Positions 1 through 63,267 are shown, counted from the stretch's first letter. The stretch is 64,000 nt of DNA from Candidatus Omnitrophota bacterium (GCA_021735655.1 JAIPGM010000001.1:161728-225727); one strand, 5' to 3'. Numbers and translations: made by a program. Notes: generated by a model not told the origin, from the letters alone.

Positions 1-55
1 CCGTCTTGATCCAGTACGGGATAAATTACTCTATGACTATCTTTTAAAGCGTTTA

Positions 56-1240
56 ATGAGAGAGGGTATGATTGGAGCAGCAGTTGATTTTGAACAAATG
101 ATGCAGGCTAATTCCCTTTCGGTTAATCTTGCCCAAGTTGCGACTAGAAGATTGTTGGCCGATATAGCTATTTATCACACCGAAGAATTTGCTTTAGGAT
201 TACATCTCCAAACTAAAGGCGTGCCAACCTTTATTATGCCTCCGGCAATTAACCCTTTTAGTTATAAAAATATTCCCCTAGCTGATAATTTTATTCGGGC
301 AACTATGGTTAAATATGGTTTAGATCCCAATAAATTTACGGTTGTTGAAATATCACGTTTCGATCCTTTTAAGGGGCCGCTGGAGGCCATTCAGGCTTTT
401 GTGCGTTTATTTTTGGATAATCCGGGATTGCAGAATGATTTACAATTTGTTTATGCCGGAAATATGGCTGACGATAACCCTAAGGGAAAACGCGATTTTG
501 AAAAGATCGATGCCTATTCTCGCTATCTTAGAAAGAAATTTCCTAAACTTAGGAAAGCCTTGTTTTTGCTCGGTCTTGGGAATAAACCCGGGACAGTAGC
601 CTTAAATTGGGCCCAGAGACGCAGCTTGCGTGTTGGTGGTCAGTTTGCTCGGCCATTTTCTCGGAAAGAGATAGGTCGACTCAACGGTGTTGAGATAAAT
701 GCTCTTGAGGTTAATGCTTTACAGCAACAACTTGAGATGGAAAAAAGAGACGGTAGGTTAGTTATTTCTTTACCGCGTAAAATAGCAATACAGCCTTCAT
801 CAAAAGAAGGTTTTGGCTTAGTGGCGGCTGAGGCTACCGGAAAAGGTACTCTGGTTATCGCTTCTTTGATCGGTGGCCTTAAAGCGCAATTAAAGGATTT
901 GCTTGCGCAAGCTTCTTGGTTGGGCATTAACTATACGCCGGAGGAAATTAGTCAATCTTTAGAGGTGTATGACTCAATGGATTCTGATCAGCATAGAGGT
1001 GTTGTTTTCGATGTGGCTTATTTGGAAAGAATTAATTTATATCAACGGCTTAATCAACGAGAATTCGTTTTGGGTTTAGCTACCTCTCTGCGGGTGGCTT
1101 ACGAACTGGCTCATAAAAATCCAGATGTCTATCGAGAGCTCGGTTTAGCTGCACGTTGCCAGACTTTAGATAAGTTTATTACTCTAGCTAATGTTGAGAA
1201 CCGCTTAGCCGCCGCTTCCTTGATTGTTGATAATCAGCAG
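56..1240 (+). other. Module A: C-terminal portion of a GT4-type (group 1) glycosyltransferase, truncated at the window edge.
   Basis: Motifs EISRFDPFKGPLEAIQAF and EGFGLVAAEATGKGTLVIASLIGG match the GT4 C-terminal Rossmann domain (E-x7-E / EGFG...EA...G.P.I region). The module ends immediately before the PLDNG at 1241. Confidence 0.55.
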
Positions 1241-4200
1241 CCCTTGGATAATGGTAAGCCAGAAGTTCCGATGCCTTCTTCTTATTGGATCGATCATAGC
1301 CTTCTTCATGAAATTGATAATGTTTGGGCTAACTTGGATTGGATTAATCCCGGGCCAAGTTTAAGCATAGCTCGCCAGATTGAGAAAAATTTTAAGCCAG
1401 CACAAGAGCCAGGTTTTTTAAGAGTTAGCATAGATGCCTTTGGTCCGCTTAACGGATTTAAAAATCAAGTATTAGCTGAACATGAGCAGTATTTTGATTC
1501 CGAGGTTTATAAAGATTATCGAGCTGGCATAATTCATGCTATTGATAATCTTTGGCAACACGGCGGAAAGTACGGTGCCTTATTTTTGATGGCTCAGCTT
1601 AGAGGACGAACCGTACGCTTTACTTATTGTTTGCTAGATCGCGGTGATGGTTTTATTAATGACGATTACAACCATGTTCGTTTAGAAGAAGCCGTTCAGG
1701 CACATAGAACATTTAAACGAGCCGGCAAGAATGGTATGGGCCTTTATTATATGGCGATAAAGCCGGATTATTTTTCAATCACCGCGGTTAATTGCTACCG
1801 GGCTGTTGCCACAACTCAAGCTCACTATTGGGAAACTGGCTACACTAAAGAATGGCCGTTTTGCCCGCAACAAACTCCGGTTAACAAGGGGGTGCGGGTG
1901 ATTTCGGTAAAGGATGTAGCTTTAGGCCTTTTGCCATTTTCGAATATGCAGCCGTTAGATAATGGCCGTCGAACTGATGAAGAACGCCTGGATTTTATCG
2001 GATTTTTAGTTGAGTCATATTTAGAGGCTTTATTTACTTTCCGGAGGTTAAGAGCAAATAACAGCGAAGTAGCCGAGATGTATCTGCCAGCAATTTCCGA
2101 AACTGCCGTTAGAAAGAAACGAGCCAAATGGGTAGTTACAGCTGTTGAGGTTGCCCGTGAGGCATTTCAGGTTATGGCTCGAGCTGATTTTCGACATTCA
2201 TCCGGCTTAACCATTCGTTCAATCTTTGATTCAATTTTGGCTTCTGGCGGTCGCAACCAAGCAGCTAATGATCTAGGAGTCGATCGCGCTAGCCTTACTC
2301 GCTGGATGCATAGCTTACCTAATGATTTATTAGGTGGGTTAGATCCAGAATTAGCAGTCTTCAAACAAAGAATCCTTGATTTATTTGATGAAAACAATAC
2401 TCGACCCCTAGACAACGGTAAAGAAAATATAGATTTATTAGCGGTTACAGCAGTTAAAAGAGAGGACACCTCACCGTGGCTGGCGGGCCCTCTCTCTGCT
2501 GTAGCCCCTATATATATAGGTAAACAGCAGGGGCCGCTAGATAACGGCCGAGCGCCTTTGGATAATGGCCAGCCAGCTAACTTTTGGAAAGTTTTGCATT
2601 CTGGTATATACGTACTTCCGATATATTACACTCGACTTTTCGATACAGCTAAAGACGCAGGAATTGGAAAATATACTTATGTAGTGCCGTTTGTTCGTGA
2701 TCATGTATTGTCTTTAGGCCATCAAGCGATACTTTTCTTACCGTTTTCTTTGCAGTTACCTTGGTCGCAATCTCCTTATGATGCGGCTGATTGGCGTTAT
2801 TTTAATACTGATTATATTGATTGGGGGCTTATCCCTGAGGCTCAACCTTTTCTAGGTAAGTTCGATTATTACGGTCATTCACAGCGTAGCGTTGATTTTC
2901 GATCAATCCGGCCACGTGAATTATTAATCGGAAAGGCCGCCTTTCTTAATCTCAGAGACAATCGAGAAAAACAATACCGCCAGCGCTGGGAAGATTTTCA
3001 AAGGTTTGTTAACAATCAGCGAAGTAGAGGGCCGGAGTGGGATTTAACCCATCTTGGTCATTACCGGGCCTTCAATGATGTCTTGGGTAATGATTTTGGT
3101 TTATGGGTTCATGAAGGGATGTATTGCCCTAGGCAGGATACCCATCCAGATGTTATCAAGTACAACGTTGCTGAGCAAAATAAAAATATGCAATATTCAG
3201 ATTTAATTCAGTTCTATCAATACCAGCAATGGATTGCTTTCGGCCAGGCTCGCGATATGCTTGAAGGTTTGCGCAATATTGGTGTCTTTTATCTTTTAGA
3301 TAATCCTTTCTTTCATGCTAAGGGTGGTATTAATTTTTGGACCCAAAACATCATTTCAAGAGATAGGCATTATGAATTTTTTGATCGTTCACCCGGTGTA
3401 CCCGGAATCGGTAGTGACCCTGAACAATTCTGGACATCTTTGGTTCCTTGGAATTGGCCTAGATTAAGAGAGTTGGACTATGAACCTTTCTTAAACCCTT
3501 ATCATTATTATTTAGGTGATTTGGGCGCTCAGGGAGTTCGGGCTGATGCTATTCATTTTCTTTTTCCTTGGATTCATTGGGAACGCGGTCCTTATGCTGC
3601 TAATTTTCAGAGTTGGGAGTCCCCGGGTCATGATTTACTTTGGAGATTAGACAACGTTTTTAATTCTTATGGAGCTTTCAGGCTTGGCGAGTTACTTGGC
3701 CCGGGTTTTGAAAGTATTCAGAGAATGGGCTTTGATAATTATCACTGGCATTTCTATCGGATGTGGAAATGGGGTGGCGGACCTGATTTAAATCCGGGTT
3801 GGAACGCAAAAGCTTTAGAGTTACATGATGGGCCGCGGGTTTGTGTTGACCATGAACACGGGTTCTATCCTTATGCCGGACACGCTTATTTACGGCATCG
3901 TTTGGAGGGCCCGGGCGGTCTAAAAGAATTAAATAGTCGTTTCCTTTTAGGCAGTTCGGATATAGCTATGGTTTATGCCGGAGATGAAGTAGCCGACAAC
4001 TGGTGGATAAATAACCCTAATCTGCCTGAGTGGATGATGGATCGTAATTGGGCCACTCGAATGCCAATGCAGGGCGATCAGGATTTTGATCTTTCAGTAG
4101 CCTTGTCCATGCTTGAGCATCGCCGTTGGATTGGCCAGCGTCTAATTGAGCGGACGCCTTTGGATAATGGTAAGCAAGAGTTTAATCATCTTAGCTTGGT

Positions 4201-7200
4201 TGAATCTAACGGTGAACAAAAGTTATACTCAGCCAGTAGTTTAGTAATATCTCAAAGGGGAGTCTATTTAAGCCCGACATCAACCGGGCCGAAAGAGGTA
4301 ATTTCTCAGATTCAACTTAGCCCAAGCGGAATTAAAGTTTCCGGGGAGTTAACTAGCCAGGAGCCAAAATCCCGGCCAATAGATTATCGTCACTCTTATG
4401 AAATTAACTTTTATTTTGAAAAATTAGCTAAAGCCTATGGCCGCGGTTTGTTTGTCGGTATCAATGACGTACAGCTTTGGATTCGTCTTAGCCAGGCTTT
4501 GGGTGATTTTTTATGGGGCGTTTTGCGTCTTGAAACAGGGATTTTTGATATTCCCGATAGAAAATTACGACGCCTGGTGATTCAGGAAGCGCTTTATCAT
4601 GAGGTGATGACTAGTGCCTTGGGGCTTTCAGTGGCTAATCGCGGCTTGCGTGAGTTTTTTGCAACCATTTTAAGTGTCAGCCATTTTTGCTATCTTAGCG
4701 AGATAGCTAAAGATCAGGATAAGCTTAATTATCGTTTAGGGATTCTGCAAGCTCTTGATCGGGGTTTAATCCAGATGAGTGATTCACTGGCTGGGCTATA
4801 CCGTCAAATTGCCGAGTCTGGCAGTTTACCTGATCCAGCAACCTTGGTAAAAGCAGTTATAACCCATATTAATGAAGAAGAACGATACCATAGTGACCGG
4901 CGTTCATTTAGGGATTATGTTCGAACTAAGTCCGAGAATTTTAGCGGACGCTTTACAGTCGGAAATCTTACCCAGGCGGTATTAAATGATTCAGCTTTAC
5001 AGTTAGAGTTACAGGCAGAGTGGACAAATTTCTTGGGATTTTTAGCTAATTCACAAACCGTAGCCCGTGCCTGGCAGCCGAAAATTAAATTTATAAGAGG
5101 TCCGCGGGGCATAAAGGTTATTAATCCCCAAGGCGTACCGGATCAAGGCGGCTATCAATTCCAGCTGCAAAGTTTCCGGGCAATTTTTGACTGTTTGGGT
5201 TTGCCTAATCCGCTTAGTGAGCCAGCTGCCCTAAATAGATATTTAGGTTTTCTGCCTGAGCCTCCTGAGTATGACTCCCAAGCCGTAAATTTACCGGAGT
5301 TAAACATCAGTCAAATTTTACCCGGAGTAGCTGTTGTTTATCCGGATAGTTTGGAAGCTAATCAATTAGCGGTAAGGCGAGCTTTGTATGAATTGATGAA
5401 TTTTCGGGTTTGGAAGTTAGCCGTTGAAATACGTGGCGCCTTAGGTACAGAAGATGCTTTGTTTTTTGATCAGCATTGTCAGGTACATTCCTTTGTTGAT
5501 GTAGCCCAAGGGTGGATGTTAGATTTAAATCCCCAAAGCCCGATAGTCTATGATGATGTTTTACCCGGCGGCCAAGCTTACGAAGCGCCGGAGCAGCCGG
5601 ATTTAGCCGAACATGAGCGATTGCATCAAAAGGCTCAGGCAGTTTTTTCAAAAGTTTGGGCAATCACTATGAACAGGTTCTTGCGGGATCAGCGGATGTT
5701 TGGCGGTGAAGCCGTGGGTTTAGTTGGCTTTACTACAACCGTACCAATATTATATCGTTACATACAGCAATGTAAGCATTCTGAGCCGGAATACTCACTA
5801 CAGCGACCTTTGAATAATGGCCTAGGCATACTTCAATATTTACAATCTTTACGTCGTAGCCAGGAAACCGAGGCTGCTAGAAGGGTTAGTCTAGACCAAG
5901 GCTTTGGGCAATTAAAAAGTTTATTAGTTGAAAAATTACAGTCGATTGATTCAACCACTTTAAGCATTGCAAATCTTGATCAGGCTTTGAATGAAGATAG
6001 CCAGGCGATATTTTTAACCTTAGAGCAATTAAGAGAGGCACGCTTTCAGGCTGAGAGCTTTCGTAATGGGCAGGTAAGTATGTGTGATCTTGCTAGCCTA
6101 GCTTTGGCCGCTGCCAGCGAAGAAGTTTTTGGCCAGAGACACTTAGTTAAAATAGTTGTTGGCTATTATCGGGTTGATGAGCAGCTATATAAAAAACATT
6201 ATTGGGTTGTGATTGATGAAACATTGTTGATTGATATAACTTATGGTCAGTTTGATCCGGACCATCTCAATCGTATTTTAGTTGCTACAGTAGATGATTA
6301 CTTGAGATTAAAATTAGAATATGGTACAGAGTTAGAGCCGCTTGATAATGGAAAACAAACTCAAGTTCAGCCTACTTGTTTAGAGGCTAGGTGGTGGAAT
6401 AATTATTATCCCGGGGTTATCGAAGGAACTGGAATAAGGCCGACTGCCCGCTCACTTAGCTTTGAGCAGATCGAAGAAGTGGTTTGTCTATTACTTCTCG
6501 ATCAAGCCGGCCAGGAATTGGTAGCTAAAATAATAAATAGAGAACTGCCCGATGTATATCCTTCGGTTCGAAGAACCGCTCTTAAAGCTATGGTCAGGTT
6601 CGATCATTACGAACTTTTTGGCCCGAAGATAATTACTTGTTTGCAGGATGTAGTCAGAGATGGAGCTGAGATGTATCAGCCTTTTGCTCTTTATGCTTTG
6701 GCTCAGACCCCGGCTTTTAATGGCCCGGTTGCCAATAGATTTGCCGAGGAAGCACTTAAGGGGACCCTTAAACCAAGCCCAAGAAAGCCTACCGCAGCCG
6801 AAAAAACTGCCTTACAGGAAGGGTTAGAGCCAAATACTCAAGCGATTAGATTTAAATCCCGGCTTGCTTCAGTTGAATATTTAAAAGGAGTTTTAGCTCA
6901 ACGTCAAGGTTGGGCTCGGGTTTGCCTCGGAACAGTACCACATTTTAGTCGGGTTAGCAATCGCGCTTTAATCAATAAATTTGCTGCTCAGGTATTAGCA
7001 GCTGATAAAAAGCTTTCTTCTAGTTCAGCTCAGCGACGCCAGAAAGATAAGTCAGAATTTTGGGGTCTTGAGCAAGCTGAGTTTATTCATCCAGCTACTG
7101 GCCATGAAGCTTTGGTTGAGCTGGCCAATGATCCGGAGTTATCATCTAGTGATGAAAGTCCTTTGGTTGATCAAATACTACATCAGATGGAGGAATTAGG

Positions 7201-10200
7201 TTATGTGCCGATATTGCGACCCAGTAAATTTCAGCTTACTGAGCCAGCTCAAGGTCAGGAAGCTGAAATTGATCGCGAGGCGCTTTGGACCAAGGATGCT
7301 GTTTTGATGATTTCTACTAAATTCGGAATAGTTCCGGTTTCTTCAGCATTAGCCAATCTTAAGGGCGGTGAGTTCGTCAGTGGCTATGGTAAGCGCGGCA
7401 GCTTTATGATTATTCCGGCAGCCGCTCTAAATTCAAAACAGCAGCTATCTGATATAATTCCCGAGGTTCCGATTCATGTATTTCCTTCGGGATTTTTGGT
7501 GATCAATGATCAGGGCGTAATTCGTTTAAGAGGAACCTCGCATATTGACACTTCTTTAGGAGCAATTCCGATTATGGCCCGGCCAGAATCAGGCCAGTTG
7601 ATGTTAATCGATCCTTTGTTGCATCAGGTTGCCCGTACACACCCTCGCTATCGCGATCACTATCAATCAGTAGTTCAAGAAGATGGAGTGCGTTTTATTG
7701 ATGTGCCCGAGCCTGAACGTCATTTAAATCCTGCTAATTTTGGTATTCTTCCCGGTGGAGAAATATTTATGCCTTATGCGCCGCGGACTAAACAAGTTTT
7801 AATTGAGGCTGGGGTTAATGAGCAGTATATAATAATGTTACCAAGTGAATTTAATAAGTATTTACCAACCCTTCATGTTTTGGCGGGGAGTATTGGCTGT
7901 TTAGTGGCCCAAGCTTTTCATCCGGTTGAGAAGCGAGAGCCGCTCGACAATGGCCATGAAAAAGAAAAACGGCAAACTAGATCCCGAGCAATAGATATAT
8001 CAACCAAAGGTGCTGAAGATTTATTGTTTACTGAGCTTCAAACAGGGAGTTTAGTTAGTTTAGTGGTTGATGGCCTTGAGTATTGGCTTAGCCTTGACCA
8101 GGGCGATGAAGTTTGGTTTGATTTATATCGGCCTAAAGATGATATCATTGGCTATATTTATTTTCGAAATGACGCAATGCCAGCCAGAAAAATAGCCAAT
8201 TTTGGCGGCCCGAGCATTGTTCCGGCTTACCGGGGCAGGCATTTGTCGCGAGTTCTTTATTTTGTTTATTTTCGTTATCTTTGGCGCAATAATTATATCC
8301 CTGAAGAAGACTGTTTGACTATCGATGATCGATTGGCCCTAAAGCTTTATCATGAAGCTAAAAAGTTTTATTACGATCAAGACCATACCTTTACTCCGTT
8401 TCAGATTATTCCCCGAGCCGAAAAGACTAAAGCTGCAAAACCTTTAGATAATGGCCACGATATGGTTCAAAAACAATTATTTGAGTTAATTAAGCGTAAG
8501 TCAGATTCGATTAAAACTTTCTTAGAGCCGTTTGAAGCTTGCCTTGCTTACAATGGAGTGTTAGCTTTGCTGATTCGAGGAAGGCCTGACTTGAGCGTTA
8601 AATTTTTGCTTAAGAAGATTGGCTCGGCTGAGCATTGGTTTTTACTGGCTGAAACTGTTTTAGGAAATCATCAGTTTGTGGTTGATATTTCGCCGCAAGG
8701 AAAGATGTTTACCGATATTGAGGTGCTGGTTGTAGATTGTGCTGAAGCCGGAAAAATAAATTATCTATATGAAGATTATACTGTAGTTAGCGATCAAGAA
8801 ACCGAAAACTTATTGCGAGCCTTAGCAAGACAAAAAGGGATGAATGAGTTCTTGCATTTAGTTCATCAATTACCAGAAGAAAAATGGATAGGTAGGTTAC
8901 CGGATAGTGACCAGTCGATGCCACTTGATAATGGTAAATTAATCAATGAAGGTTCAGAAAGTTCTTTTTCCGATATAACTAATTCGATGCGGGTGACTTT
9001 TGTTATGCCGATGTACAATGAACAGCAACGCTTACTTCCCAAGACTTCTGATAATCCCTATGGTGAAGATGCTTTAAGGGTTAAAGTAAGTCAATTTAGA
9101 GAACTCGAGCAAGAAAATCCTAATTTCCAGTGGCGGCTAATTGCCGTAGATGACGGAACTCCCGGGTTTGCTTCAGCCAAATGCCTTGAGCAGATTTTGG
9201 CTGAGATTGATGCCCAGAATCGGGAATTTAATATCTATTCTAAAGTTTTCGTAGTGGTGATAACTGAACAAGAAAAGAAACTCCTAGGCAGCCGAAAGGG
9301 TGGAGCGGTTTTGCGTGGCTTTCAAGAGGCCCTAAGCCACGGTTGGGCTGATTATATCGGGATTACTGATACTGATATTTCCAGTAATGTTAACCAAACT
9401 AAAGATTTGATTTTGGCTCTTCGCAAAGGTGCTGGAGTAGCCATTGGTTCACGCCGCCAAAGCGGGGCCGAAGCTCGCGGCATACCGCTTTTAGGGAGAG
9501 TTAGCACAGTTATTTATAATTGGTGCATTCGTTTGATTTTGTGGCCGCTTTTTTCAATTCGTGATACCCAGCGCGGTTTTAAACTTTTTCAAAAAGAAGT
9601 AATTGTCAGAATATTACCCTATGCTCGCGATCACCATCTTTCTTTTGATACTGAACTGTTACTTTTGTCGCGTTTAGCCGGATACCAAATAGCTGAGGTG
9701 CCGATTGTCTGGATTGATTCAGCTGAGGCAACTACTTTGGTTATGTCTAAAGATGCTCCAGCGATGCTCTGGCGAGTGATTAAACAAGCCCGCCATATTT
9801 TTAATAATCCTTTTCGCGGCCAAAAGCCGCTCGATAACGGCCGAAAAATAAATCTATCAGTTAGAATGCTCAGAAAAGCTAGATTAATTACTGTTCATGT
9901 TGATGCTGGAGATTGTCCAGCCGCCTTAGCTAGCGCGATTGATAAATTAGTTTCGGGTTTAGGGCAAATCCAAGTAAGCCGTAGTAATATTGTCTTAAAC
10001 ACCGCCCATCAGAATAGCCCTATGGATATTGTTTCGTCGGTAGGCTCTCTCTCAACTGAACAGATAACAACTTTATTTCCTGAAGCTGTTTTTCTGATTG
10101 CTGGCGGCAATGTGTTTAAATGCTTAAGAAATCTAGTTGAGTCATTGGCTGTCGGCTCAGTGAACAAGCGAACTGTTAGGATTTTTGTTCTTTACGATTA

Positions 10201-13200
10201 TACCTATGGCCAAGGCTCTAATTATAGCCCTGAGCAATTAGCCGGTGAATATTATGATTATTTTAGCGATATGCTTTCAGTCTATAGTGATAGGTTTAAT
10301 CTAGCTGTATTTTATCTTGCTCAGAATCAATTCGAGCAGGAAATTTACGGTAAAAATTTATCCGGGCCCAATTTATCTTTAGCAATTATTGAAAAAGAAG
10401 CTTTAGCTAGTCAAGTACCTTTAGATAATGGGCGTAGTCTTGGGGAGTTAACTGCCGAAGGCTACAACTTAAAGTTTCTAGCCCGCAGTTCTGATTTAAG
10501 AATGACTGCCCATTGCCGAAGAGATGTAAGTTTTAATAGTTATCTTTATGATTATCGCCTGGATCCAGAGCATACTTATCGTCAAGCCCAATTAGTTCCT
10601 TTAGTTGCTCGATCGGTTAAGGAAAATGCTTTTAGAAAGTCTTCTGATTGGCAATACTTGCCGCAGCATTTGAAAGATTTATACGATTCCGGTAAAGTTT
10701 TGATGATTGCTTCCCGAGCCCAAGCTAAAGCTAAGCCTAGCCGGTATTCAGCCTTAGTAATTTCTGGCAGGACTGAGGCTTTTAGCGGCCGGATGGGTAT
10801 TTTACTCTATGACAATCGGCCGATCATTGTTTCAATTTTAGATAAGCCTTTTTTCATTGAAGCTAAAGGAATCGGGGTTGCTCAAGGAGGTTTTAGCTCA
10901 GTGCATCGGCGCTCGGGCCATAGATATGAAGTTACCGGGGCTCAGCGTTGGCAAGCTTCCTTAAAAGAATTTACCAGTTTAGAGCTTGAGCGAAAAATCA
11001 GCCGATTTTTTGGAACAGCTGATACCCCACGCGCCTTAGCGGCGATAGTCTATAAATATCCTCAAATGGATCAGTTAATTAGTGATAGCCTAACTAGCCA
11101 GGCTGAGCGAAGAGAAGCTAAAGAGCAGTTAGGCGATAGTTTAGGGATAATGTTGCGGCTTTCGCCTTCGAGCCGCCGCTTTGCTTATAATTTAGAACAG
11201 CGTCACATTAGAATGCTTGGTGAAGCTTCAGCCCGCCTGCTTTGTTCTTATCTTCCCCGAGTGCATACTTCGCCGCATTTTGAAAATCTTCTGGAGTGGG
11301 CCGAAGGCAGTGAATTCTCTTGGTCAGACTATGGAGATATTGAAGTGTTATTTGCTCAAAGTAGTTATCACTGGTCAAGGTCACTGATTAATGCCCGTCG
11401 GATATTAATGTCTTATTTGGAAACTAGTATTAGCTGGAATGTAAATTTATTAAAAAAACTGGGAATAATCGAAACCGAAGCAGAATTTATCAGCGAATAC
11501 CTAGCTGGCTTTGTTGCTTATGCTGAAACTTTAGACTGGATAACTCCTGAGGCAATCGAACGTTTAGCCCGAGTCCGCTCGCCTAAGGAGTTTGTTGACG
11601 TAATGATTTTTGAAGTATTCGCTTTAAATGCTTACAACGTGTTTAAAAAACAAACTTATGAAACTATAGTTGAAGTTAATCAGAATAATTTAGTAGAAGA
11701 ACTTTTAAGCTCGGCTTTAACTATTGCCCAGCGGCAAGAGAAAGCTCAACTTGTTGCTGAGTTAAGTGGACATATTGAAGCAGCTAAACAAGGAGAGGCT
11801 TTTTTAGGTTGTCGAATAAAAAAATCTCAAGCTAATCAAGGGGTGCTTACGCCGGTAGCTCAGCCGGTTAAAAATAGTTCTTGGGCTAATCCCTTTTTTG
11901 ATCAATTCGCTTATGATTTATGGCATGCGCTACTTTTTGATGATCATAACCTTTATGATTATGTTCAGGCTAAATGGGATTATACTGTTGGTGAAGAAGG
12001 GGCTTTTAACGTGGCCGGATTTTATCTGCTTGATGCTCATTATCTTGGGTTGTTGCGTTCGCGCACCAGCATGCATAATATACCGGAAAAATTATATATG
12101 TGTTCAGCTGGATATGAAATGACTGCTAATATCAACAAATTATTGACTGCGATTAATCGAGTTAGTTTGTGCCCTCAGGAAAATACCTTGGTGCGTTCAA
12201 CCGTACGTAACACCTTACAACATGCGATTTCCCAGCGCCTAAGTAAGTGGCGCCTGGCTCGGGCTTTAATATTAGTCGTTGAATCTAACGGCGAAGTTCT
12301 TGCCGGAGACGACAGCACTTATGTTTATATTATGGATTCTGGTCCGGGCATGCCGATTGATGCGGTAATGCAAGGCGATTGGCGAAGACATAGTACGATG
12401 TTTGGTACGGATTTAAAAGGTTTTCGTGAATATAGGGACGTTGAATGGATTCTTGATTCTTGGTCAAGCAAAGCCGGCGGACCGCAACGTTGGGATGGTC
12501 TAAGAGGGGGGCTGGTTGAGGGAGCTTTAGTACCGGACAACATGCCTTTATTTGGTACTTTATTCGGTATGCGGCTTAAGCATGGCTTAGAATCGAGTAG
12601 CAAACCTTTAGACAACGGTAGAGATTCTCGGTCAAAAGGACAAAATCTTGGTAGTTTAGGAACGGCTAATAAGGCCCCTCCGGTAAAAACTTACAATGTC
12701 GAGAGTCCTTTTAATCGGTTTTCGCTGCGCCTTTTAGATTTAATTCTAACCTTATCTTTCTTGCCTCTGATTATTCTAGCTAGCCTACCCATAGCTATAT
12801 TTGTTAAATATCAGATTTTTAAACACAAGACTGGACAGTCAGTTATTTTTAAAGAGCAGAGATTCGGCTATAAGGGTAAACCGTTTATCATGTATAAATT
12901 TCGTACTTATATCGGCGATAAAGATAATCCTAAGGCAGTTTTACTGAGCTTGCGTTGTTTGGGGCTAGATGAGTTACCGCAGTGGTGGAATATCTTAAAG
13001 GGCGATCTTTCAATTTGGGGAGTGCGCCCTAAGTTACAAGATGATCCCAGCTCTGACAGTGATTTCCAAGCACACCTGGATCAGATCAATGATTTACGCA
13101 AGCCGGGAATAATTAGTTTAGCTACGGCTGATGTGCACGCTGAGATGGAGCATGTTTCTTTTTCAGCCGAGCATCGCGATCGTCAGATCGCCTTTGATCT

Positions 13201-16200
13201 TTATGAAGCAGAGTATTGGTCATTCTTTTTAGCTTTTAAAATTGTTGTTTTGAATATCTTTGCTCAATTTAAAGAAGCAGCCAGGATTGTATTCCGAAAT
13301 AAAATTTTAGTTATTGTTGCCGTGCATATTCCGCAAGCCGAGCAGCCAAAAGCCGGCCCAATTTTAAATATTTTAGAATACTTAAGCCAAAGATTCCCTT
13401 CGAAATATTATAGTGTCTTTGTTGGTTTTCCGGATTCAGGAAATCCCAATTTAAATTTAGATTTAGCTATTCCTCAAGGCTTAACCATTGGCTTAGGTGA
13501 AGGCGATGAATACAACATAGTTAATTCTCAAGGCCTTAAACTTAAATTTAGCTGGCAGTTTGAGGGGCCAGACGATTTAAGCCAAAGAACTTTAAAAATT
13601 GGACGCCACAAGTTATTAATGCCATTGTGCGCTGAAAGTTCTCTTCCGGTATTTTCCGGAGCTAAGAAAAAAATTCCCCATAAGGCTATCTTCATTCCCT
13701 TTATTGCTTTTCGTCCATGTATTGTTACCTGTATGAATGATTTAATATTTCTCAATCTTCCGATAATTGGATTAGATACCGCTAATGGCATATTTTTGTT
13801 TGTTCCCGGCTCAACCCAGATTGATATAGTCGGTACAAACAAGCTTCTGGCCGTAGCAATTAATCATTCCGGCAGGGTGATGGGCAGTTCATTTAAAGAT
13901 TTGGACCAAGTCGTTCCTTTAGATAATGGACGTCAAACCATTTCCCACTTCCGAAGTGGGGAAGGTCAGAGCCGGACCGGCCCGACATCCCGTAATTTCC
14001 CCCTGGATAACGGCGGCCGGAATAATGAAGCTATCGAAAACAATCGGTTTTCATTCGCTAATCGTCTAGGAAAAGTTTTAGTTGCTACTGTTATCGGTGG
14101 AATTTCTTTAGGGTTATTGTATTTATTCGGCGGCCTTGATTGGTATACAAATATAAAAAATAGTATTCCTTTAGGGGCAGTGATTTTCTGGCCGGGGGCT
14201 TTCCTGGATATGGTTACCGGTGTTTTGATCTGGTTAATTTCCGATATCGTCGGTCAATATCTTAATCAGGGTAGAAGCATTCGCTATCGGCAAAGTTTTA
14301 AAGTTGGTGCTTGGGGAGTATTTCAAGGGTTGGCTACTCACATTTTGTATAATTTAGTTGAACTGCTTCCGGTTGTGCCTTTACCTTTAGCGCAAGCAAT
14401 GTTTCGAACTATTTTTACTCTTTTTGGCGGACTGACTATTAACATTTTCTATACCGTGGTTGTAGCCCGGGCTCGTAAAGCATCTAAGGCTGAAGGTTAT
14501 AGCGGCCTAAAGGAGCGCCACAAGGCTTATGATGTTATTTTTAGTAAGTTTATCGTCGCCCCAATCAAAACTTATTTTATAGTTAATCTATTACCTCCGG
14601 CAACGCGGGTTATTAGCGAGCAGGCTTGGGAATACTTAATGAAAGTTTTTGATGCTTATTTGATGAACCGTAAAGATTCACTTTTTTCTAGTTATATTCT
14701 AAATTTATTATCTAGAAAAAAACCTTTAGATAACGGCCGCTCCGGGCAGTCGGATGATCAAATAACTTTGGTTTCTGATAATCTGGTTGACTCATTTAGA
14801 AATGTTAGACAAAGGCTGGTAGTAACTGTTAGGCGCGCACAGATGTCTAGATTGGATTTTAAGCCGGGGATAGTGTCACTTCAGAATATGAGCCCAAAGG
14901 TAGATTATTTCTGCCTTTCTTCAATATCTGAACGCCAAGAAGATATCCAAGCCTATAGGCAAGTTCCTTTAGTACAGGATGGTGCTAGTTTTGGAGAAAG
15001 TTACAGTGAAAAATATCTTATTGCTCAGGAACCGGATACCTTAGTTTTAGTTGAGGGTGATGAAGGGTTGATTGCCAGTTTTGATTATTCGCTTTGTGGT
15101 TGTCTAGTCATTCGGGCTAGAAATCTTTTTGGCATGGCCCACTTAAGTCCATTTATAGATTTTTCGGATGAAGAGATGGAAATTGAAAATGATCGGATTT
15201 ATTATAAATATTTATCAGTTTTAGATTATTTCAAATTACAGGGATATAAAGATGTTCAAATTTTTCTCAGTTTGAATGAGCTGCTTCAGGGATTTAAAAC
15301 TTTAAAAGCTAGGCTTTGGTCGGCTGGTGATAGCGATGCGACTAATCGTCAGAGAGTGGTAGATCTTCTTGGGATTGAGGCTAGGCAACGCGGCATAGCT
15401 GTTGTTGATCGCCGCCTTCGACAAAAGTCTGAGGTTCTAGATGTCCTGGGTTTTCCGAGAAAAATGATTAGCCGTCAATGGCTTAATCGCGGCACAAAAC
15501 CCGAAAGTTTTGAAATAATATTTATTGAGACTAGAGATGAGTTGCCAGTAGCCATAAACTCAGAGACTCAACAACCCGAGATTGAATACTTTCAATTCGC
15601 TTGGCCTGTTGTGATACCTCTCGATAATGGCCGCCGGAAACTACCAAATGATGACTGGATTTGGGTTAATGGAGAGAGTTTGCAATTTGTTGGCCGGGAC
15701 GGTTTATTGATAACAGGAATGGAGGGCCGGGGTAAAAGTTTTTTGGCCAGAAAAATATACGATAGCGATGATAGATGGAAAGTCGTATCCTGCGGAGCTA
15801 CTCATGTATGTATAAGGAATGAATTAGCAGAAAGAGCGCTTTTAGGCAGACGTTTATCCGAAAATAATCTTTTATATTCCCGGCTGTCAGGAACAATCCC
15901 GGTAGAACTATCGTTAGATGTAGTTGTTAGGTTGAACTGGGTTATGGCCTTAGACGATCTATACCGAGAAATTTTAGGGGGATTGTTGGCCGATGCCGGG
16001 CAAAGAGAGTCTTTGGGCCTCAAAATTATAGATATGAGCGATCTAGACGTAACTCGGCAATGGCCGAAAGTGTTGAAGTTCATCAATGCGTCTATTGTGA
16101 AACCAGAGACTTACGATAAAGGAAATAGTTTATTTCAAGTCCCTCTTGATAATGGTAGACGAGCTCAAGTTGAACAGGAACGGGAATTTTTGATCCAGAC

Positions 16201-19200
16201 AATCATAAATGTTTTTAGCCAAGGTGAAGGATTATGCCTGGAGCCGGCGCAGATAGAGGCAGCTATTGCTGTAGATACATCATTTGATGAATACAGGATA
16301 GCTAGAAACTTGCCGATAGTTATTGGCCTAAAGGGTAATATTTATGAAAATTGTCCTTTGGCTAGCAAGCCTCTTCTTCTTGTGTTTACCGGCAGAGGAA
16401 GCATAACTAAACCAGAGCTTATCTTCAATGCCTACACCCAGCAAGGTTTAGTCAGAGAAGCAAGCCGTTTAAGTCGTTCGATGGAAACTAAAAATGCAAT
16501 TTGGGAGATACCTTATCATGGCAAGAAGACGGCTTTCATATTGGAAGATAAAAATAACTGGATTGCTTTGGCGGCAGTTTATGGTCCTGAAGATATTTAC
16601 CAACAAGGACTATTGATCTGTAAGGGTGGAGATAGGATAACCAGGTTAGGTACAGAAATTTCTCAAGCCGCTGGTGAGGCAGATGAGGAAGCTATATTTT
16701 CTGATTATTCCCGGGCCTTAGTGGTTGCTCGTCTTTTAGGATTTTCTATCCTTGATGGTCCAGATATGATGCGCCGGGTTAACCGGCGGATGAGCGCTAT
16801 GATCGCGGCAGCAAAAGAGACTGTGGCCGATATCAATGAGTTTGCTAAGGCATACCCTGGTTATGAGGCTGTTGATACACATCACATACTTAAACCTACT
16901 ACCAGTAATCCGGTGGAAGAGGGAGGTTTCCCGCACACTGAATGGATGGTGACTAGTCGAGGGGTTGTTCAGGGGACGGTTACTGCTTTGCGTTGGCTTA
17001 GACAGGTTCTTGACGTTGGAGAGAATAGGTACCCTGAGGAAGTGGTAAGATTTGTTAAAAATTTGAATATATTTGGAAGTCCGATGAGCTATATTGTCCA
17101 AGGCTTTGGTGATGTTGGCAGCGGCATCACTAAGCTTTTTTTGACTATTTTTAAGATTTTTGGGTTTCAGGCCAGGGGTTTTAATAACCGTTACTTTGCA
17201 ATTTATCGCCGCGAAGGATTACCTAAACCATTTTTAGTTGAGGCGCGGGAGATCGTTGAAGTTTCTCCTGATGCTTTAGATCTAGGGAGATTACTGGCAA
17301 TGAAGAGTTTTGATGACCAATTACAGGGGGCGGTGGTTTGGATAGCTAATCCAATTAACCCGAAAACTAAAGAGCCAGTATTTGGTCCTGCTGATGTGGA
17401 CAGAGTAAATCAAGCTCTTGCTGAAAGAGGTGTTACTGCTATTTGGGGTGATCAGACAGTAGTAAATGAACTAATTTATCAAAAGGCAACCGTGCTTTTT
17501 CTGGCTGCAACCGCTAATGTTATTAGTGAACTTTCTCAGGTTGAAAGATTGCAGGTTAAGATTATTTCTGAGGGAGCTAATAATGCAGTTAAACCTGAGT
17601 TAAGAGAGCCTTTAAGAAAAGCTAATGTATTTTATATTCCTGGTGAGCTTCTTAACGGCGGGGGCATATATGCTTCTAAGGAAGATATTCGGCATAACCA
17701 TACCGATGGATCAGAATTAATAAGGCAACATCGGCAATACTATTATATACATGTAACTGATGAGATCGACACATTGGCTCTTCACCGAATGATTTCTTTC
17801 CTTGAGATTTGGGCTGAGTCAGCAGGAAATTTTTCTTTTGATTTAACCGTCCATGTAGAAAAAGTTGCCGGCCGGATTTTTGAAGCAGCTGATAATTTGG
17901 TAAGAACCAATAATACACGTTTGAGAAAATTTACCCAAATTGATCAAAAGAGAACCTTTGATCATCAAGCCGGCCGGCCGACTTTGCCTTGGCGTCATAG
18001 TCTTTATGAAATTGCCATTGAAATGGCACCAATGGGAATACTTTATCATTTGCGGGATGTCGGTAGACACTTATCTTTACTTAATAGATTTAAGGTTGCA
18101 ATAAAGGAAGATGGTCAGATAGATAATTATCATATATGTCGTCTGCGTTTTGCTTTATTTGAGTTGACCAAGCTAGGCTATTATTTAAAAAGTAACCAGC
18201 GCAGAAGGTTAATCGGCCTTCTTCCTGGAATAATTACCGATGAAAAGTGTGATGGCCTATTAAGGAAAGATGCCATGTTTTGTTTGGCAATGGCAATTAG
18301 GTGGCAGGAAGAAGAATCCTGTAAATCTGAGGTAGATCGGGCAAGAAAATTATATTTAGGCATATTACAAAATCCCCTTGAAAGTGCTCAGCTGCATACC
18401 TGGGCTCAGCATTGTCTCTATAGGATTTTCGGAGAAAATTACTTCCGGCGGATAAGCGCTGATTTTGATCGCTTAAACGGAGTTAACTTACCCAAGCCGC
18501 TTGATAACGGTCGGGATAGTTCGGTCGGGATTACCTCAGAACCGTTAAGAATTTTAGCCGAGCTAATTTCGAATAGTTATCGGACTAAGGCTTTAGTAGA
18601 ATTTTTGCAGCCTTTCTTAGATTGTGAATCTGTTAATTATTTACAAGAAGAGATAGCAAAGCATTGCCAGCTACCGGCCTGGGGTGTTGTTTCTTCTAGC
18701 CATTATCTTGATGAAGGGTATTTCTATTATGGTTTAAAATCCGGTATTGATCGCTGTCTCGAAAGAGGAGTTATGGTTGAGAATGACGGTAACAGATTAT
18801 ACGTTACTAAAGATTCAGAGGATACCGTAAAATATAGCGGCCTTGACGAAACTCAAGAAAACCAGTGGGGAATTTTTATTTTTCCAAGCGAGTATTTCAA
18901 TCAGGCTATCAATTGCGGTTATGCCGAGGCCGGCTTAAGGCTTTCACATAACCGCTTAGGCATAACTACTTATCCATACTTCAAAAGTTCTTTATCGCTT
19001 GCGCCGGCACGCTTTCTGATAATTGATAGATCTAAGGCAGATGAACATAGGCACCTGGAAGGCCAGCCGAAGCTAAAAGATAAACTTCAAGCCTTGACCG
19101 AAGCAGGATTGAAGGTTCTATGGTTGCCGGATTCTTCCGGCCCATTCTTTGACCCTGATTTCCAATATGCTTTCGGGGAGTTGTTGTTTAGTAATGATAT

Positions 19201-22200
19201 TCCGGAAACCAATCGCTTTCTTTTTTATCCGTCCGCAGATACTCAAGATCTTACAAAAATCATCTGGTGGGTTTTACAGTCGTTAAGAATGAGTAGTATA
19301 AAAAATCGGCTATTACATAATATGGAGTTAGCTCGGCAATTTAAAAAAATCGGCCCCTTTGATAATGGGCGAGCTGATTTTACAACAGCAGACGAACAGA
19401 TCGGTAATCTTTTTGCTGAGGCAGTTATTACAGGAGATAATGTTTTAATTGAGACTCATTGGGATGCTGTAGCGGCTAAGAGAGGCGGCAGTTTGAATAT
19501 TTTAGAACATGCTGGCTTAAGGATTACAAGAAGTTTAGCTTTAGGAATTGTACCGCGGGCTGGTGAATGGCCGGATAGGGTTGAAACCGATCAAATCATT
19601 CTGAGTTCATCTCGCTATGGTTGGATCGATTCTGAAAGAGATATTGAGCATTTGTTAAGCGGCTTTGATCAAGCCAGATTGCTTAATTCGTTTAATCTTG
19701 GCCATTATTATCAGGGTTGTCACTATCGAAGTTTCCTAAGCTGGCTAGCGGTTTTAAAGAGTAGTCATTTCCCGGCAGTTATTTTTCATTTCATAGGTGA
19801 GCTAATTAATTCTTGGGGTATTAAGCCAGCTGCTAAGAGTGATTTTCCAGTTTTGGCCAGTCGAAGGGATATCTTTTCTTTCGTTAGCGTGCCTTATGTT
19901 TCAGATATAGAAAAATTAGATTTGCCAGTTGCAGTGTTTTTTGATGGTAAGCTTAGTTCGCTTAGGCGTGGCGATAGCCGGAAACAGCCAACTTTAATAT
20001 TAGCTTATTGGCAAGCTTTGAATGGTTTTATTGGTTTTAAAGAACAGATAGCTAGGGAAACAGCAGAATTTCAGAATACCCCTTTAGATAATGGCCGCAA
20101 AGAGCATGACATCTCTGATAGTACGGTAATCCAATGGCCGCTTAATGTAATTGTTAAAGATATGCGCGGTTTATCCAAAGGCGAGATATTAGCTGTTGTT
20201 AAAACCGGTAAAATATTTTGGGGAAGGGAAATAGTAGGAGCTATTTTTTCTGACCGCAATATTGTTTTTGGTAAAGTGGTCGATGATAAGTTTATAGTAT
20301 TTGATGATTGGTTAATTGAAAGAATTCCTGGAGGATTGTTAGAGGGGTTGCGGAGAAGCATTTTATTTTTGCCTTATTTAGGAAGTATTTTAAGAAACAA
20401 GACATCGTCAATAAATAAACCCCTGGATAATGGCAAGAAATATAATTATCGGCAAGTCCTAGAGATGGTTGACTGTTTTGATAGTGCAAGGTTAGAGGCT
20501 CACTTATTTAGAGCTCTTGGCAGAGTTGAGACTGAAGCCGTATCTATAGCTGGTGATATTATTAGGGCGGCTAGAAAATTTGAACGGATAACTAAAGCAG
20601 TAAAATCTCTTTATAGGAAAACTTACGGCAAGCTACCTAATTTTACTCTTGCTTTCGATCCTTCCGGTCAAGGTATGTATGGGGCGTATCAGGAGGATGA
20701 TACAGCCGGATTTTTTGATCATATTGGCGTAGCTCCAGAAGATGTGCTGCTTGAGGTAGGCAGCGGCGATGGAAGCATTTCGGATTTCATGGCCCATATG
20801 TTTGGGATTAAGGCAACTGGGATTGAGGTTTGGGAGCCATATTATCATTACGCAGTTTTCTTAAGAGATGAAGCAGTAAGAAGAAGATTCATTCCAGAAG
20901 GTAAAGTAGATTTTTTAAATAATAATTTAGTAGATGTTGATTTTTCAAAGTATTCTTTAGTGTACTACGCTGCTCTTGGCACAAGAAGAAAAAGTGAGCT
21001 GGCTGCTAGATTGCTTGGGGTAAGAGAAAAATCCAGGATATTAATTCGGGGTTCACCTGATGAGTTAGTGGAAGGGATTATCGCATCACATCCTGATTTT
21101 AGCTTAAGGAAGCTTGAGATAGAAGTTAATGAAAACCTTACTGGAATTAAGGCAAGGGTTTATACTCGAGAGACAATTACCAGTTACCAGCCGGTTCTCG
21201 ACGTTCCTCTAGATAATGGCCGAAAAAATAACCCTCAGATGGTCAGAGCGCGCTTAGCCGCATTTGAAAAATCAATCGAGGGCATCGTGCCTAGGGCAGA
21301 TCCGCTTTATGACCATTTAATTCGTTTTTATCAATATCCTTTGAATAATTTGGGTGAACCTGACGAAGAGACCTATGTAAGGAATAATACCAAGGAGCAG
21401 GAGCGGGAGCTTCTTAGATTCTGGGCCGGCCATTTCGGCCTTCCTAAAAATTACGGCGGTCATGTGACTATCGGAATCGGTCAGGCTGAATATTATGCCA
21501 TGTACGTGGCTAGCAATCGATTTCCCAAGGCTATATTTTATATTTCTAATCAGGTCGATAGCCTTCTTTATGATACTTTACAGGTGTTGGGCATTGATCA
21601 AGGAAGAATAAAGTTAATTAGGTCTTTAGAGAATGGCGAGATCGACTATGGTGATTTAAAGAGAAAGATTAGGGAGAATTCATCATGGCCGGCGGTGGTC
21701 TGCTTGACTGCTGGCAGATTCCTGGGGGCGGTTGATGATTTAGGAAAAGTGGAAGGAATTTTAGGGAGCCTGGGCCTAAAGCATAAACATATTCATTGCA
21801 GCATGTCACCGTTAAGTATAGGCCAGTCGTTTTTGGAAGATGCGGCAAAGATAGATTTTCAACATGGCTTAGATAGCATGAGTCTACCGTTGTATCATTT
21901 TGTAAGGTGTCCGATGCCAGGAGTCATCGTTCTTACCAGAAGGAAATACCTTCAGAACATTGCTTGTAGTCAAAAAGCAGCTGAGTATGTTAACTCTAAC
22001 GACACCACTAATTCTGGATCACGTAGTGGTCATGCTCCGCTTTATCTTTGGTTTGCTACAAAAGTTATTGGGACTAAAGGATTTAAGGCTCAGGCTGAGC
22101 GGGCCAGGGAAGTTTGTGTTTCTATTAAAGCTCTATTTGACCGTTACGGTTATCCTTGCCGGTTCACCGCGCAAAAAAATACAATAATCTTTGAGCCACC

Positions 22201-29311: not shown

Positions 29312-29351
29312 AGGTTGCTTTAAGACAAGCCTTAAGGTATAATTACTTTCA

Positions 29352-32036: not shown

Positions 32037-32064
32037 AACGATAAGTTAAGATTGAACAATAAAG

Positions 32065-33159: not shown

Positions 33160-33174
33160 CTTTTTAATTTTAAT

Positions 33175-34140: not shown

Positions 34141-34146
34141 TAGACT

Positions 34147-35115: not shown

Positions 35116-35197
35116 AACCGCGCCTTTTTCAGGACTTTTCTTTTTATTCTATTGATTTTTTTCCTTCGCTATTGATTTGTAATTTGGTTGGAATTCA

Positions 35198-35215
35198 TTG
35201 AATTTAATGTATAAT
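35198..35215 (+). promoter_or_regulatory. Putative sigma70-like promoter with an extended -10 (TGTATAAT), in the 143-nt AT-rich gap ahead of the glf-like gene.
   Basis: TTGAAT at about 35198 and TGTATAAT at about 35208..35215. The -35/-10 spacing is non-canonical, so the call rests mainly on the extended -10. This is the only sizeable intergenic gap in the downstream operon. Confidence 0.2.
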
Positions 35216-35258
35216 AATTAAGATAATATCAATAAGGCTTTCTAAAGGGGCCTTTGTC

Positions 35259-47014: not shown

Positions 47015-47020
47015 AGTTAA

Positions 47021-47839: not shown

Positions 47840-47864
47840 ATAAGCAAAATTGTGAAAATTTAAG

Positions 47865-48737: not shown

Positions 48738-48740
48738 AGG

Positions 48741-50909: not shown

Positions 50910-50919
50910 AAATTTACAT

Positions 50920-56335: not shown

Positions 56336-56380
56336 AATTTTCACAGTTGCTATAACTTAAGGAATAAAGGAGAATTTGAT

Positions 56381-57058: not shown

Positions 57059-57059
57059 T

Positions 57060-57863: not shown

Positions 57864-57870
57864 GTAATGA

Positions 57871-59217: not shown

Positions 59218-59337
59218 GATTGGAAGTTATTATATCTCTTGTAACTAAACCGGGCAATGCTTTTCTTGGTGGTGTTTTACTGATTGGAAGCAAATTCGTG
59301 CGATAATTCATGATTTTAGATAATAAACAGCGTATAT

Positions 59338-60477: not shown

Positions 60478-60544
60478 ATGTTAAACTGTATTCATGATAA
60501 AATAGTTTTCATTTTACTGGAAAGGAAGGGATTAAGGGCAAACA

Positions 60545-63264: not shown

Positions 63265-63267
63265 GTT

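Follow-up and report, generated by a model that had tools for sequence, protein, structure and literature searches.

A 64,000-nucleotide stretch of the genome of a Candidatus Omnitrophota bacterium (GCA_021735655.1, JAIPGM010000001.1:161728-225727; the whole stretch is called the window below, and positions are counted from its first letter) carries a single stop-free open reading frame (ORF) of 29,256 nt and 9,751 amino acids (aa), annotated on the plus strand from an ATG at 56 to 29311. Its translation is divided into approximately 29 units by a recurrent junction peptide, PLDNG followed by R or K (PLDNG[R/K]). The units are functionally unrelated, self-contained proteins that are probably meant to be separated, and we lean towards the reading that PLDNG[R/K] is the recognition site of a dedicated endopeptidase, which would make the ORF a polyprotein gene. 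One unit, referred to here as the focal module (1967..2404), is a complete small protein with a probable helix-turn-helix (HTH), most likely a transcriptional regulator placed among enzymes of glycan metabolism.

Giant genes of Omnitrophota reach 147,000 codons, and neither of the papers on them could tell whether the products work as single chains (West-Roberts et al. 2023, 10.1101/2023.11.21.568195; Nielsen & Lui 2026, 10.64898/2026.06.07.730766). Cleavage of giant proteins has been speculated on, with the cleavage points stated as unknown (West-Roberts et al. 2023, bioRxiv 10.1101/2023.11.21.568195). A class of 'multi-enzyme metabolic cluster' has been defined for the Omnitrophota giants, which are modelled as intact single membrane-anchored chains with up to 147 transmembrane (TM) helices and with no mention of cleavage, linkers, motifs or polyproteins (Nielsen & Lui 2026, bioRxiv 10.64898/2026.06.07.730766).

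Results

The translated ORF contains 27 exact copies of PLDNG, one PLNNG and one PFDNG, all in its own frame (Table 1). PLDNG is absent from the other five frames and from the remaining 35 kb of the window, and the composition of the chain itself predicts 0.008 copies by chance. Each of the residues P, L, D, N and G carries approximately 4 bits of information and the sixth position (R or K in 24 of the 29 copies) 2.4 bits, against less than 1 bit for each flanking position; a footprint of six residues is the size of a protease subsite cleft. The segment boundaries used in a preliminary description of this DNA coincide exactly with the separators. Because the 27 exact sites are written as 25 distinct 15-mers at background codon usage (all five motif residues are coded as in the rest of the ORF; GAT/GAC p=1, AAT/AAC p=0.15), selection acts on the peptide and not on the DNA, and PLDNG is conserved as a peptide rather than as a repeated DNA linker, an RNA signal or a cloning scar. 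A TAATG stop/start overlap hidden in GAT-AAT-GG, which would act at the RNA level, is ruled out, being present at 17 of the 27 sites only with GAY and AAY at background.

The separators fall between proteins. No Pfam domain straddled a separator when the unsplit chain was scanned, nor did that scan find any extra domain. Enzymes of nine different families were recognised, each within a single unit between separators and with no Pfam family in more than two copies: glycosyltransferase (GT) 1/GT4 (twice), glycoside hydrolase (GH) 77, GT2, a phosphoglycosyl transferase, a Glu/Leu-dehydrogenase-like unit, a methyltransferase-like unit, a pyridoxal-phosphate (PLP) decarboxylase and a GH100/GDE-like hydrolase. 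The majority of the remaining units are orphans in Pfam, NCBIfam and the PDB sequences, and permissive scans of the focal module and all orphans (Pfam E<=10, NCBIfam E<=1) gave no HTH, HATPase, RHS or peptidase family. Hydrophobic segments of TM type occur in three units only, and in all three (G15, G17 and G29 in Table 1) the first lies 20-45 residues past the separator, a placement like that of N-terminal signal anchors. Between some successive separators there are mini-units of only 38, 2, 23 and 24 residues (2420..2569, 13931..13999, 27551..27622), which may represent spacers, the remnants of decayed modules or small peptides that are released.

Of the four non-enzymatic labels in the preliminary description, two are unsupported. 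A histidine-kinase-ATPase-like stretch had been placed at 12260..12530, where we find no support from hidden Markov models (HMMs) or the PDB and a single DxGxG-like string; searches for GHKL/HATPase_c (N, G1 and G2 boxes) found no Pfam, NCBIfam or PDB match for the enclosing unit (10433-12604) or for the orphan at 1256-1951, the DxGxG-like strings being read by eye. The latter orphan has GHKL-like N/G1/G2-box strings, again by eye only (IIHAIDNLWQHG; IDNLWQHG / LLDRGDGF / GKNGMGLY), and adjoins the HTH-like unit in a manner reminiscent of a kinase/regulator pair; no library backs the GHKL likeness. The 920-aa unit at 23495..26254, described as an RHS/YD-repeat module, has no RHS match in Pfam, NCBIfam or the PDB, and its repeats are of approximately 95 aa and not of the approximately 20 aa of YD repeats. 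For the proposed P-loop NTPase module at 15632..16141, the Walker A string GMEGRGKS is real (aa 5221-5228, the sole GxxxxGK[ST] of the chain), but no NTPase family could be assigned, as AAA-type matches were below threshold and covered the loop only (AAA_16 17.5 bits with a cut-off of 32.6, Sigma54_activat 16.1 with 20.2, RtcR 17.3 with 650; AAA E 0.006-0.002) and the PDB gave no match at E<0.2.

Only four proteins matched in a search with the first 4,889 aa of the chain; each is a giant, with a length in the range 3,056-5,131 aa, and each has mixed Pfam content. Protein P0004 has 5,131 aa and is complete; it comes from contig CAZFML010000001.1, which is labelled uncultured Planctomycetia. The motif [S/N]-[L/F]-[D/N]-N-G-G recurs in it 15 times as a separator, and the 13 copies within the fetched locus each have a codon string of their own. 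P0004 shares with the window chain the focal module and the 72-aa C-terminal unit G30, both whole, and almost nothing else. Because two modules are shared whole and the remainder of the chains is almost all different, modules move between chains as separator-bounded cassettes. The two shared units, both small and perhaps regulatory, suggest that LDNG-type polyproteins have a conserved 'core', which might serve autoregulation or processing. The C-terminal module of P0004, past a separator, is of sigma-70 r2/r4 type, and its module 14 opens with a Tat-like RRDFLK signal (RRDFLKSSAGAFA; 16.8 bits) nine residues past a separator. P0007, an 827-aa fragment from a third dataset (GCA_001039965.1 is among the related datasets), has a focal-like module, a low-molecular-weight phosphatase module and TM segments just past its junctions, which read FDNGG, LDNGA and xTNGG.

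Other giants use other punctuation. P0005 (4,658 aa, Candidatus Omnitrophica) has ten copies of [S]SSP[L/V/A], one every 200-1,000 aa, where 0.21 are expected, and these junctions flank three GT2 modules homologous to the unit at 8936..9826 of the window; the GT2 modules begin 12-25 residues past the separator in the PLDNG and SSSP dialects alike. The junction of P0006 may be ASS[S/P], and no recurrent junction was found in P0003. Scans of genomes and metagenomes for further loci returned the P0004 contig only, and a linker-profile search found no relatives.

The preliminary description had considered that the chain might be an artificial concatenation. An assembly chimera, a synthetic construct or a set of genes merged by stop-removing sequencing errors would be in keeping with the absence of the exact 9,751-aa sequence from the searched protein collection and with the metagenomic origin of all data. 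The chain runs, however, through 29,256 nt without a stop, and the same gene is found in an independent Logan assembly of SRR12088349, where it is continuous for 8,937 aa to the end of the contig. The codon data on the junctions (25 distinct 15-mers, background usage) and the presence of the same module and related separators in two further, unrelated datasets, CAZFML010000001.1 and GCA_001039965.1, also contradict an artefact, as do neighbouring genes identical to NCBI records: MCF7907298.1 and MCF7907307.1, on a 341-kb contig of a Candidatus Omnitrophota metagenome-assembled genome, match two neighbouring window proteins exactly. We reject concatenation, and regard an artefact of any kind as extremely improbable.

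The ORF resembles an operon written as a single gene, in which approximately 29 independent proteins, including glycan enzymes, PLP and NAD(P) enzymes, membrane proteins, a P-loop unit, small putative regulators and many orphans, stand head to tail. PLDNG[R/K], present at every junction, would be recognised by a dedicated endopeptidase, encoded either in the upstream part of this ORF or at another place in the genome. Cut by it while the chain is being translated or afterwards, the regulator, the cytoplasmic enzymes and the membrane proteins would be freed and would each gain an N-terminus. Separation is favoured because of the junction hexapeptide, the conservation and shuffling of whole modules, the tiny spacers, the TM and Tat features that follow separators and the embedded transcription factors, which are hard to reconcile with a passive linker. 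In the preliminary description obligate post-translational separation, or else concatenation, was concluded from the diversity of functions, which were held to be incompatible with one intact protein; the separators, shuffled modules and targeting features bear out its direction, although the argument itself is the weaker one, given that multifunctional uncleaved chains exist and that only one of its four labels is reasonably supported. Of the two outcomes that it offered, separation is the one we prefer, and we infer both the cleavage at the motif and the nature and location of the protease.

Several observations weigh against cleavage by an endopeptidase. Neither the 9,751 aa nor the following 35 kb yielded a peptidase domain or a persuasive peptidase motif, and the unassigned segments in which the preliminary description proposed to look for a protease acting in cis gave none by Pfam, NCBIfam, PDB or motif sweep. 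We know of no protease whose specificity LDNG would fit. The Tat-signal and M23 matches in P0004 are below the Pfam gathering scores, and LDNG-type examples number three among 1.84 billion representatives and two contig collections. With TM helices in three modules only, a single intact chain is topologically possible. The sweep for classic peptidase motifs gave one HExxH (aa 1853) in an atypical context, where approximately 0.3 are expected by chance. Candidates of a 'papain-like' Cys...His...Asp type (5822-6337, 8456-8920 and module 7 of P0004) were discarded, with no mutual similarity and no PDB, Pfam or NCBIfam match, as was a CheD-like string in 14738-15616 with no support from the same libraries. 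In P0004, an M23-peptidase-like module (HLHFEIRYH) falls just short of the cut-off, at 27.2 bits where 28.7 are required. Gly-Gly bonds are the substrate of M23 enzymes, a specificity that is suggestive for the ...NG/G junction of P0004.

Without cleavage, the chain would be a membrane-anchored megaenzyme in which PLDNG[R/K] serves as a hinge, as a turn-forming linker or as a peptide that a scaffold, chaperone or modifying enzyme recognises or docks on, and in which the HTH-like module acts in cis as a helical adaptor or complex tether. This agrees with the published view of Omnitrophota multi-enzyme giants as single membrane-anchored chains and with the failure to find a protease in the chain; D-N-G is a classic turn-forming sequence, and P0003, where similar modules are joined without any recurrent separator, shows that such uncleaved fusions occur. 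Yet a passive linker needs no six invariant residues kept across synonymous codons, and the LDNG core is kept in P0004 although the modules otherwise almost all differ. Separators in tandem, at distances of 2, 23, 24 and 38 residues, would be pointless as hinges, and a Tat-like signal, signal-anchor-like TM segments just past separators and a sigma factor within a glycan-enzyme chain (P0004) all need a free protein. We therefore consider an uncleaved megaenzyme unlikely, if still deserving of attention.

Separation could also proceed with no protease, by ribosomal skipping of the 2A 'StopGo' type or by self-cleavage at Asn-Gly through cyclisation of the Asn side chain (of the intein C-terminal or FlhB/YscU NPTH type). 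The D-N-G core is invariant in both dialects, no cis protease was found, Asn is at its most reactive when Gly follows it, and 2A peptides end in N-P-G/P. However, 2A and bacterial arrest peptides need approximately 15-30 upstream residues, where the chain has less than 1 bit upstream of the Pro, PLDNG[RK] does not fit D(V/I)ExNPGP, and 2A activity on bacterial ribosomes is not known. Unstructured Asn-Gly mainly deamidates, and known Asn autocleavage requires a folded catalytic context. Such mechanisms are in our view distinctly improbable, and the evidence tilts, modestly, towards an endopeptidase acting at PLDNG[R/K].

The focal module occupies exactly one inter-separator unit and aligns end to end with aa 669-814 of P0004 at 64% identity, with LDNGG flanks on both sides there. 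The two copies have 67% nucleotide identity, with proportions of synonymous and nonsynonymous differences of 0.70 (pS) and 0.22 (pN), dS of approximately 2 and dN/dS of approximately 0.13, and the module is under purifying selection. When 1.84 billion representatives were searched exhaustively with HMMER, the focal profile matched six proteins only: two true relatives (P0004 and P0007), three tandem-HTH arrays and one spurious hit. The family thus has three members among these representatives, all inside LDNG-type polyproteins, and defines a new, rare kind of small HTH-like protein. A word-indexed homologue search with the 146-aa query missed P0004 despite its 64%-identical copy, and the negatives of that search for modules in giant proteins are untrustworthy.

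The probable HTH is found by reciprocal profiles. The three arrays (P0009-P0011), tandem repeats of a unit of approximately 48 aa, were matched by the focal profile at E 4e-4 to 1e-3, and their units are recognised by HTH_1, HTH_30, HTH_8, KORA, Sigma70_r4_2 and other Pfam HTH families. In reverse, a profile of 22 Pfam-recognised HTH units, run against 46 modules and proteins of both polyproteins, matched the focal module at E 9e-7, its P0004 orthologue at E 2e-4 and nothing else, the focal match spanning residues 82-117 (nt 2210-2317). The matched residues follow the canonical HTH pattern, with a hydrophobic core, a G at the turn and AA..LGV..S/TL.RW. AlphaFold2 was unusable with the single sequence (predicted local distance difference test score (pLDDT) 44) and needed a three-sequence alignment, from which it gave eight helices (pLDDT 75.7, predicted TM-score 0.70); residues 83-116, at pLDDT 80-90, form three short helices (83-93, 96-103, 107-116). 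A second HTH-like string (Table 1) lies in a region that partly overlaps low-confidence model residues 26-43.

The module may instead not bind DNA, being a helical adaptor or regulatory subunit in which the HTH-like string is coincidental. It has no Pfam match at E<=0.01 or E<=10 and no NCBIfam match, its closest PDB sequence match, the HTH of lambda CII, is at E=0.15, and fold searches with the model gave nothing at E<0.3 with Foldseek in the PDB and BFVD and only non-significant matches in a fold library. The reciprocal test is itself partly circular and of modest significance. These points count against a DNA-binding protein; on the other side, the focal profile retrieves proteins that many Pfam HTH families recognise, the reverse profile finds this module and its orthologue only, the canonical residues are in place in the alignment and the three short helices are predicted with good confidence. 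Among the weak, non-significant structural neighbours of the model, TrpR, TetR, LysR, SpoIIID and phage regulators are over-represented. We infer that the module binds DNA, and hold the adaptor or subunit to be unlikely, though a serious contender.

The preliminary description had assigned the stretch at approximately 2218..2310 (RSIFDSILASGGRNQAANDLGVDRASLTRWM) to a Fis/NtrC-type HTH. The HTH itself is upheld at the level of motif and profile (E 9e-7) and the type is not, with no HTH_8 match at E<=10. The string ILASGGRNQAANDLGVDRASLTRWM does fit the Fis pattern G-N/x-x-x-x-AA-x-x-LG-hydrophobic-x-R-x-TL, and the HTH-repeat proteins that match the focal module also match HTH_8 (PF02954), among many HTH families. 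In contrast to HTH_8 proteins, the module is neither the C-terminus of a sigma-54 AAA+ activator nor a Fis-like dimer of approximately 100 aa (approximately 98 aa), and its nearest PDB sequence is lambda CII. There is no AAA+ domain beside it; the P-loop unit is a separate module 13 kb away.

The giant gene is very probably longer than the annotated ORF. Its frame is open upstream of ATG 56 as far as nt 2, and residue 34 of the first unit (G1) aligns with residue approximately 178 of the full GT4 module of P0006, so that approximately 145 aa of its GT-B fold appear to be missing. Because the frame is open to nt 2 and G1 is without these N-terminal residues, the start of the gene lies very probably upstream of the window and the product would exceed 9,751 aa. 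A Shine-Dalgarno-like GAGAGGG precedes an ATG at nt 68, where an internal start is possible.

The genes 3' of the giant ORF are of ordinary bacterial kinds. Their products are an ABC importer of the Opp type, an amine oxidase, exporters of the ABC-2 type, fusions of radical-S-adenosylmethionine (rSAM)/SPASM and of B12-rSAM units, and glycosyltransferases. The rSAM genes form a dense cluster (40797..54078, and 57871..59217 on the minus strand), accompanied by a methyltransferase, GT1s and ABC-2 exporters. Several are internal fusions with no separators, of 1,284 aa (three rSAM/SPASM units), 1,052 aa (two B12-rSAM units), 788 aa and 722 aa, and the genome seems inclined to gene fusion in general. 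The G+C content is 0.40-0.43 over most of the giant ORF and 0.34-0.37 in the rSAM cluster (36-56 kb), a drop that may reflect a different origin of the giant gene or different constraints on it; GC skew is positive across the whole window (1..64000). Rfam gave no RNA family in the window, and no antisense ORF across the focal region is longer than 100 aa or has any support.

Table 1 Units and separators of the giant ORF, with the notable modules of P0004. Positions are nucleotides of the window unless marked aa.
Feature	Position	Strand	Basis or remark
Giant ORF	2..29311	+	Frame open to 5' window edge; listed start ATG 56
G1: glycosyltransferase group 1, C-terminal half of GT-B fold	56..1240	+	PF00534, E 4.7e-10; 33% identity to P0006 GT4 module
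Separator PLDNG	1241..1255	+	
G2: orphan, 232 aa	1256..1951	+	No Pfam, NCBIfam or PDB match
Separator PLDNG, then R	1952..1966	+	5' border of focal module
G3: focal module, 146 aa (aa 638-783), all-helical, probable DNA-binding unit	1967..2404	+	PLDNG on both sides
Second, weaker HTH-like string RANNSEVAEMYLPAISETAVRKKR	2051..2122	+	Conserved in all three homologues; motif read by eye
Probable helix-turn-helix IRSIFDSILASGGRNQAANDLGVDRASLTRWMHSL	2213..2317	+	Reciprocal profile matches; lambda CII alignment E 0.15; three model helices
Separator PLDNG, then K	2405..2419	+	3' border of focal module
Tandem separators PLDNG-RA-PLDNG	2534..2569	+	Two residues apart
G6: GH77 4-alpha-glucanotransferase-like	2570..4156	+	PF02446, E 3.4e-11
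Separator PLDNG	4157..4171	+	
Variant PLNNG, then L; doubtful separator	5807..5821	+	D->N also in P0004 (SLNNGG)
Separator PLDNG	6338..6352	+	
Separator PLDNG	7940..7954	+	
Separator PLDNG	8441..8455	+	
Separator PLDNG	8921..8935	+	
G12: GT2 glycosyltransferase	8936..9826	+	PF00535; homologous modules in P0003 (also three times in P0005)
Separator PLDNG	9827..9841	+	
Separator PLDNG	10418..10432	+	
G14: orphan, 724 aa; holds 12260..12530	10433..12604	+	No Pfam, NCBIfam or PDB match; MDSGPGMP at 12332..12355
Separator PLDNG	12605..12619	+	
G15: phosphoglycosyl (bacterial sugar) transferase	12620..13915	+	PF02397, E 1.6e-27; TM helix 42-60 residues past separator
Separator PLDNG	13916..13930	+	
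Separator PLDNG	14000..14014	+	
G17: small polytopic membrane protein	14015..14722	+	At least 3 TM, first at residues 21-39
Separator PLDNG	14723..14737	+	
Separator PLDNG	15617..15631	+	
G19: 170-aa unit with Walker A GMEGRGKS (15716..15739)	15632..16141	+	Sub-threshold AAA_16/Sigma54_activat/RtcR, P-loop only
Separator PLDNG	16142..16156	+	
G20: Glu/Leu/Phe/Val dehydrogenase-like	16157..18496	+	PF00208, E 3.7e-12
Separator PLDNG	18497..18511	+	
Variant separator PFDNG, then R	19355..19369	+	L->F also in P0004 (SFDNGG)
Separator PLDNG	20081..20095	+	
Separator PLDNG	20420..20434	+	
G24: methyltransferase-like, weak	20435..21205	+	PF08123, E 1e-4, just under cut-off; weak similarity to P0004 module 1
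Separator PLDNG	21206..21220	+	
G25: PLP-dependent decarboxylase-like	21221..23479	+	PF00282, E 1.4e-25
Separator PLDNG	23480..23494	+	
G26: 920 aa, divergent internal repeats, period approximately 95 aa	23495..26254	+	No RHS/YD match in any library
Separator PLDNG	26255..26269	+	
G27: GH100/GDE-like (alpha/alpha)6 glycoside hydrolase	26270..27535	+	PF12899, E 1.1e-13
Separator PLDNG	27536..27550	+	
Separator PLDNG	27623..27637	+	
G29: TM-anchored glycosyltransferase group 1	27638..29077	+	PF00534/PF13692; TM residues 24-42
Separator PLDNG	29078..29092	+	
G30: C-terminal unit, 72 aa	29093..29308	+	50% identity to a whole P0004 module, internal there with separators on both sides
P0004 notable modules (Tat-like start, M23-like, sigma-70)	aa 3964-4592 and 4598-5131		Contig CAZFML010000001.1

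Discussion

If cleavage occurs, approximately 30 proteins including transcription factors would be co-produced in equimolar amounts from one ORF, a strategy known mainly from viruses, and with PLDNG[R/K] a cleavage code would be defined for the first time in the giant genes of the phylum. It is an evenly balanced question whether a lineage of Omnitrophota, and related bacteria of the Planctomycetes-Verrucomicrobia-Chlamydiae group, express whole pathways, with regulators (HTH proteins and sigma factors) and exported and membrane proteins, as operon-scale polyproteins cut at lineage-specific punctuation (PLDNG[R/K], S-LDNG-G, SSSP[L/V]). A separator at module boundaries predicts exact neo-termini that can be sought in metaproteomes, gives a rule for splitting giant chains for structure prediction and annotation, and is a bait for finding the processing enzyme. 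Predictions of topology and function made on intact chains would need revising if the cleavage is real.

Many catalytic units of one pathway in one chain are also found in AROM and in the fatty acid synthase, polyketide synthase and nonribosomal peptide synthetase megasynthases. These, in contrast to the window chain, have no invariant junction peptide, couple their modules by channelling or carrier domains, and embed no membrane proteins, sigma factors or signal peptides. A cellular product cut at a repeated short motif is known from polyubiquitin (cut after ...LRGG), the nematode polyprotein allergens and the Porphyromonas gingipains RgpA/Kgp, and the ...LDNGG junction of P0004 superficially recalls Gly-Gly processing sites. 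Those precursors are repeats of one protein, or an enzyme with adhesin domains, whereas approximately 29 unrelated proteins are joined here, and the window motif contains just one Gly, with R/K after it.

Viral polyproteins (picornavirus, potyvirus, flavivirus and retroviral Gag-Pol) resemble the window chain in giving many mature proteins of differing function and location from one ORF, in junction motifs of approximately 5-7 residues, in small spacer peptides and in products that, here, would be equimolar. The window chain differs in lying on a cellular chromosome, beside Opp/ABC transporters and rSAM genes, in a cargo for glycan and carbohydrate metabolism, in its putative cleavage and in having no detected cis protease. 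It would be a cellular counterpart of viral polyprotein expression. A full-text literature search returned, within the library covered, nothing relevant on PLDNG, LDNGG, or bacterial or prokaryotic polyproteins.

The closest known system is the multi-enzyme class of Omnitrophota giants, to which the window chain corresponds in its Omnitrophota origin and in being tiled by many distinct Pfam families, none of them dominating. Both are long ORFs of many enzyme families, with GT1, sugar metabolism, methyltransferases and rSAM neighbours; unlike those giants, the window chain has no C39 or S8 peptidase domain and has a defined junction hexapeptide. It is thus a member of a recently described class; judged by the literature searched, the separator code appears to be new, as do the reading as a polyprotein and the family of embedded regulators.

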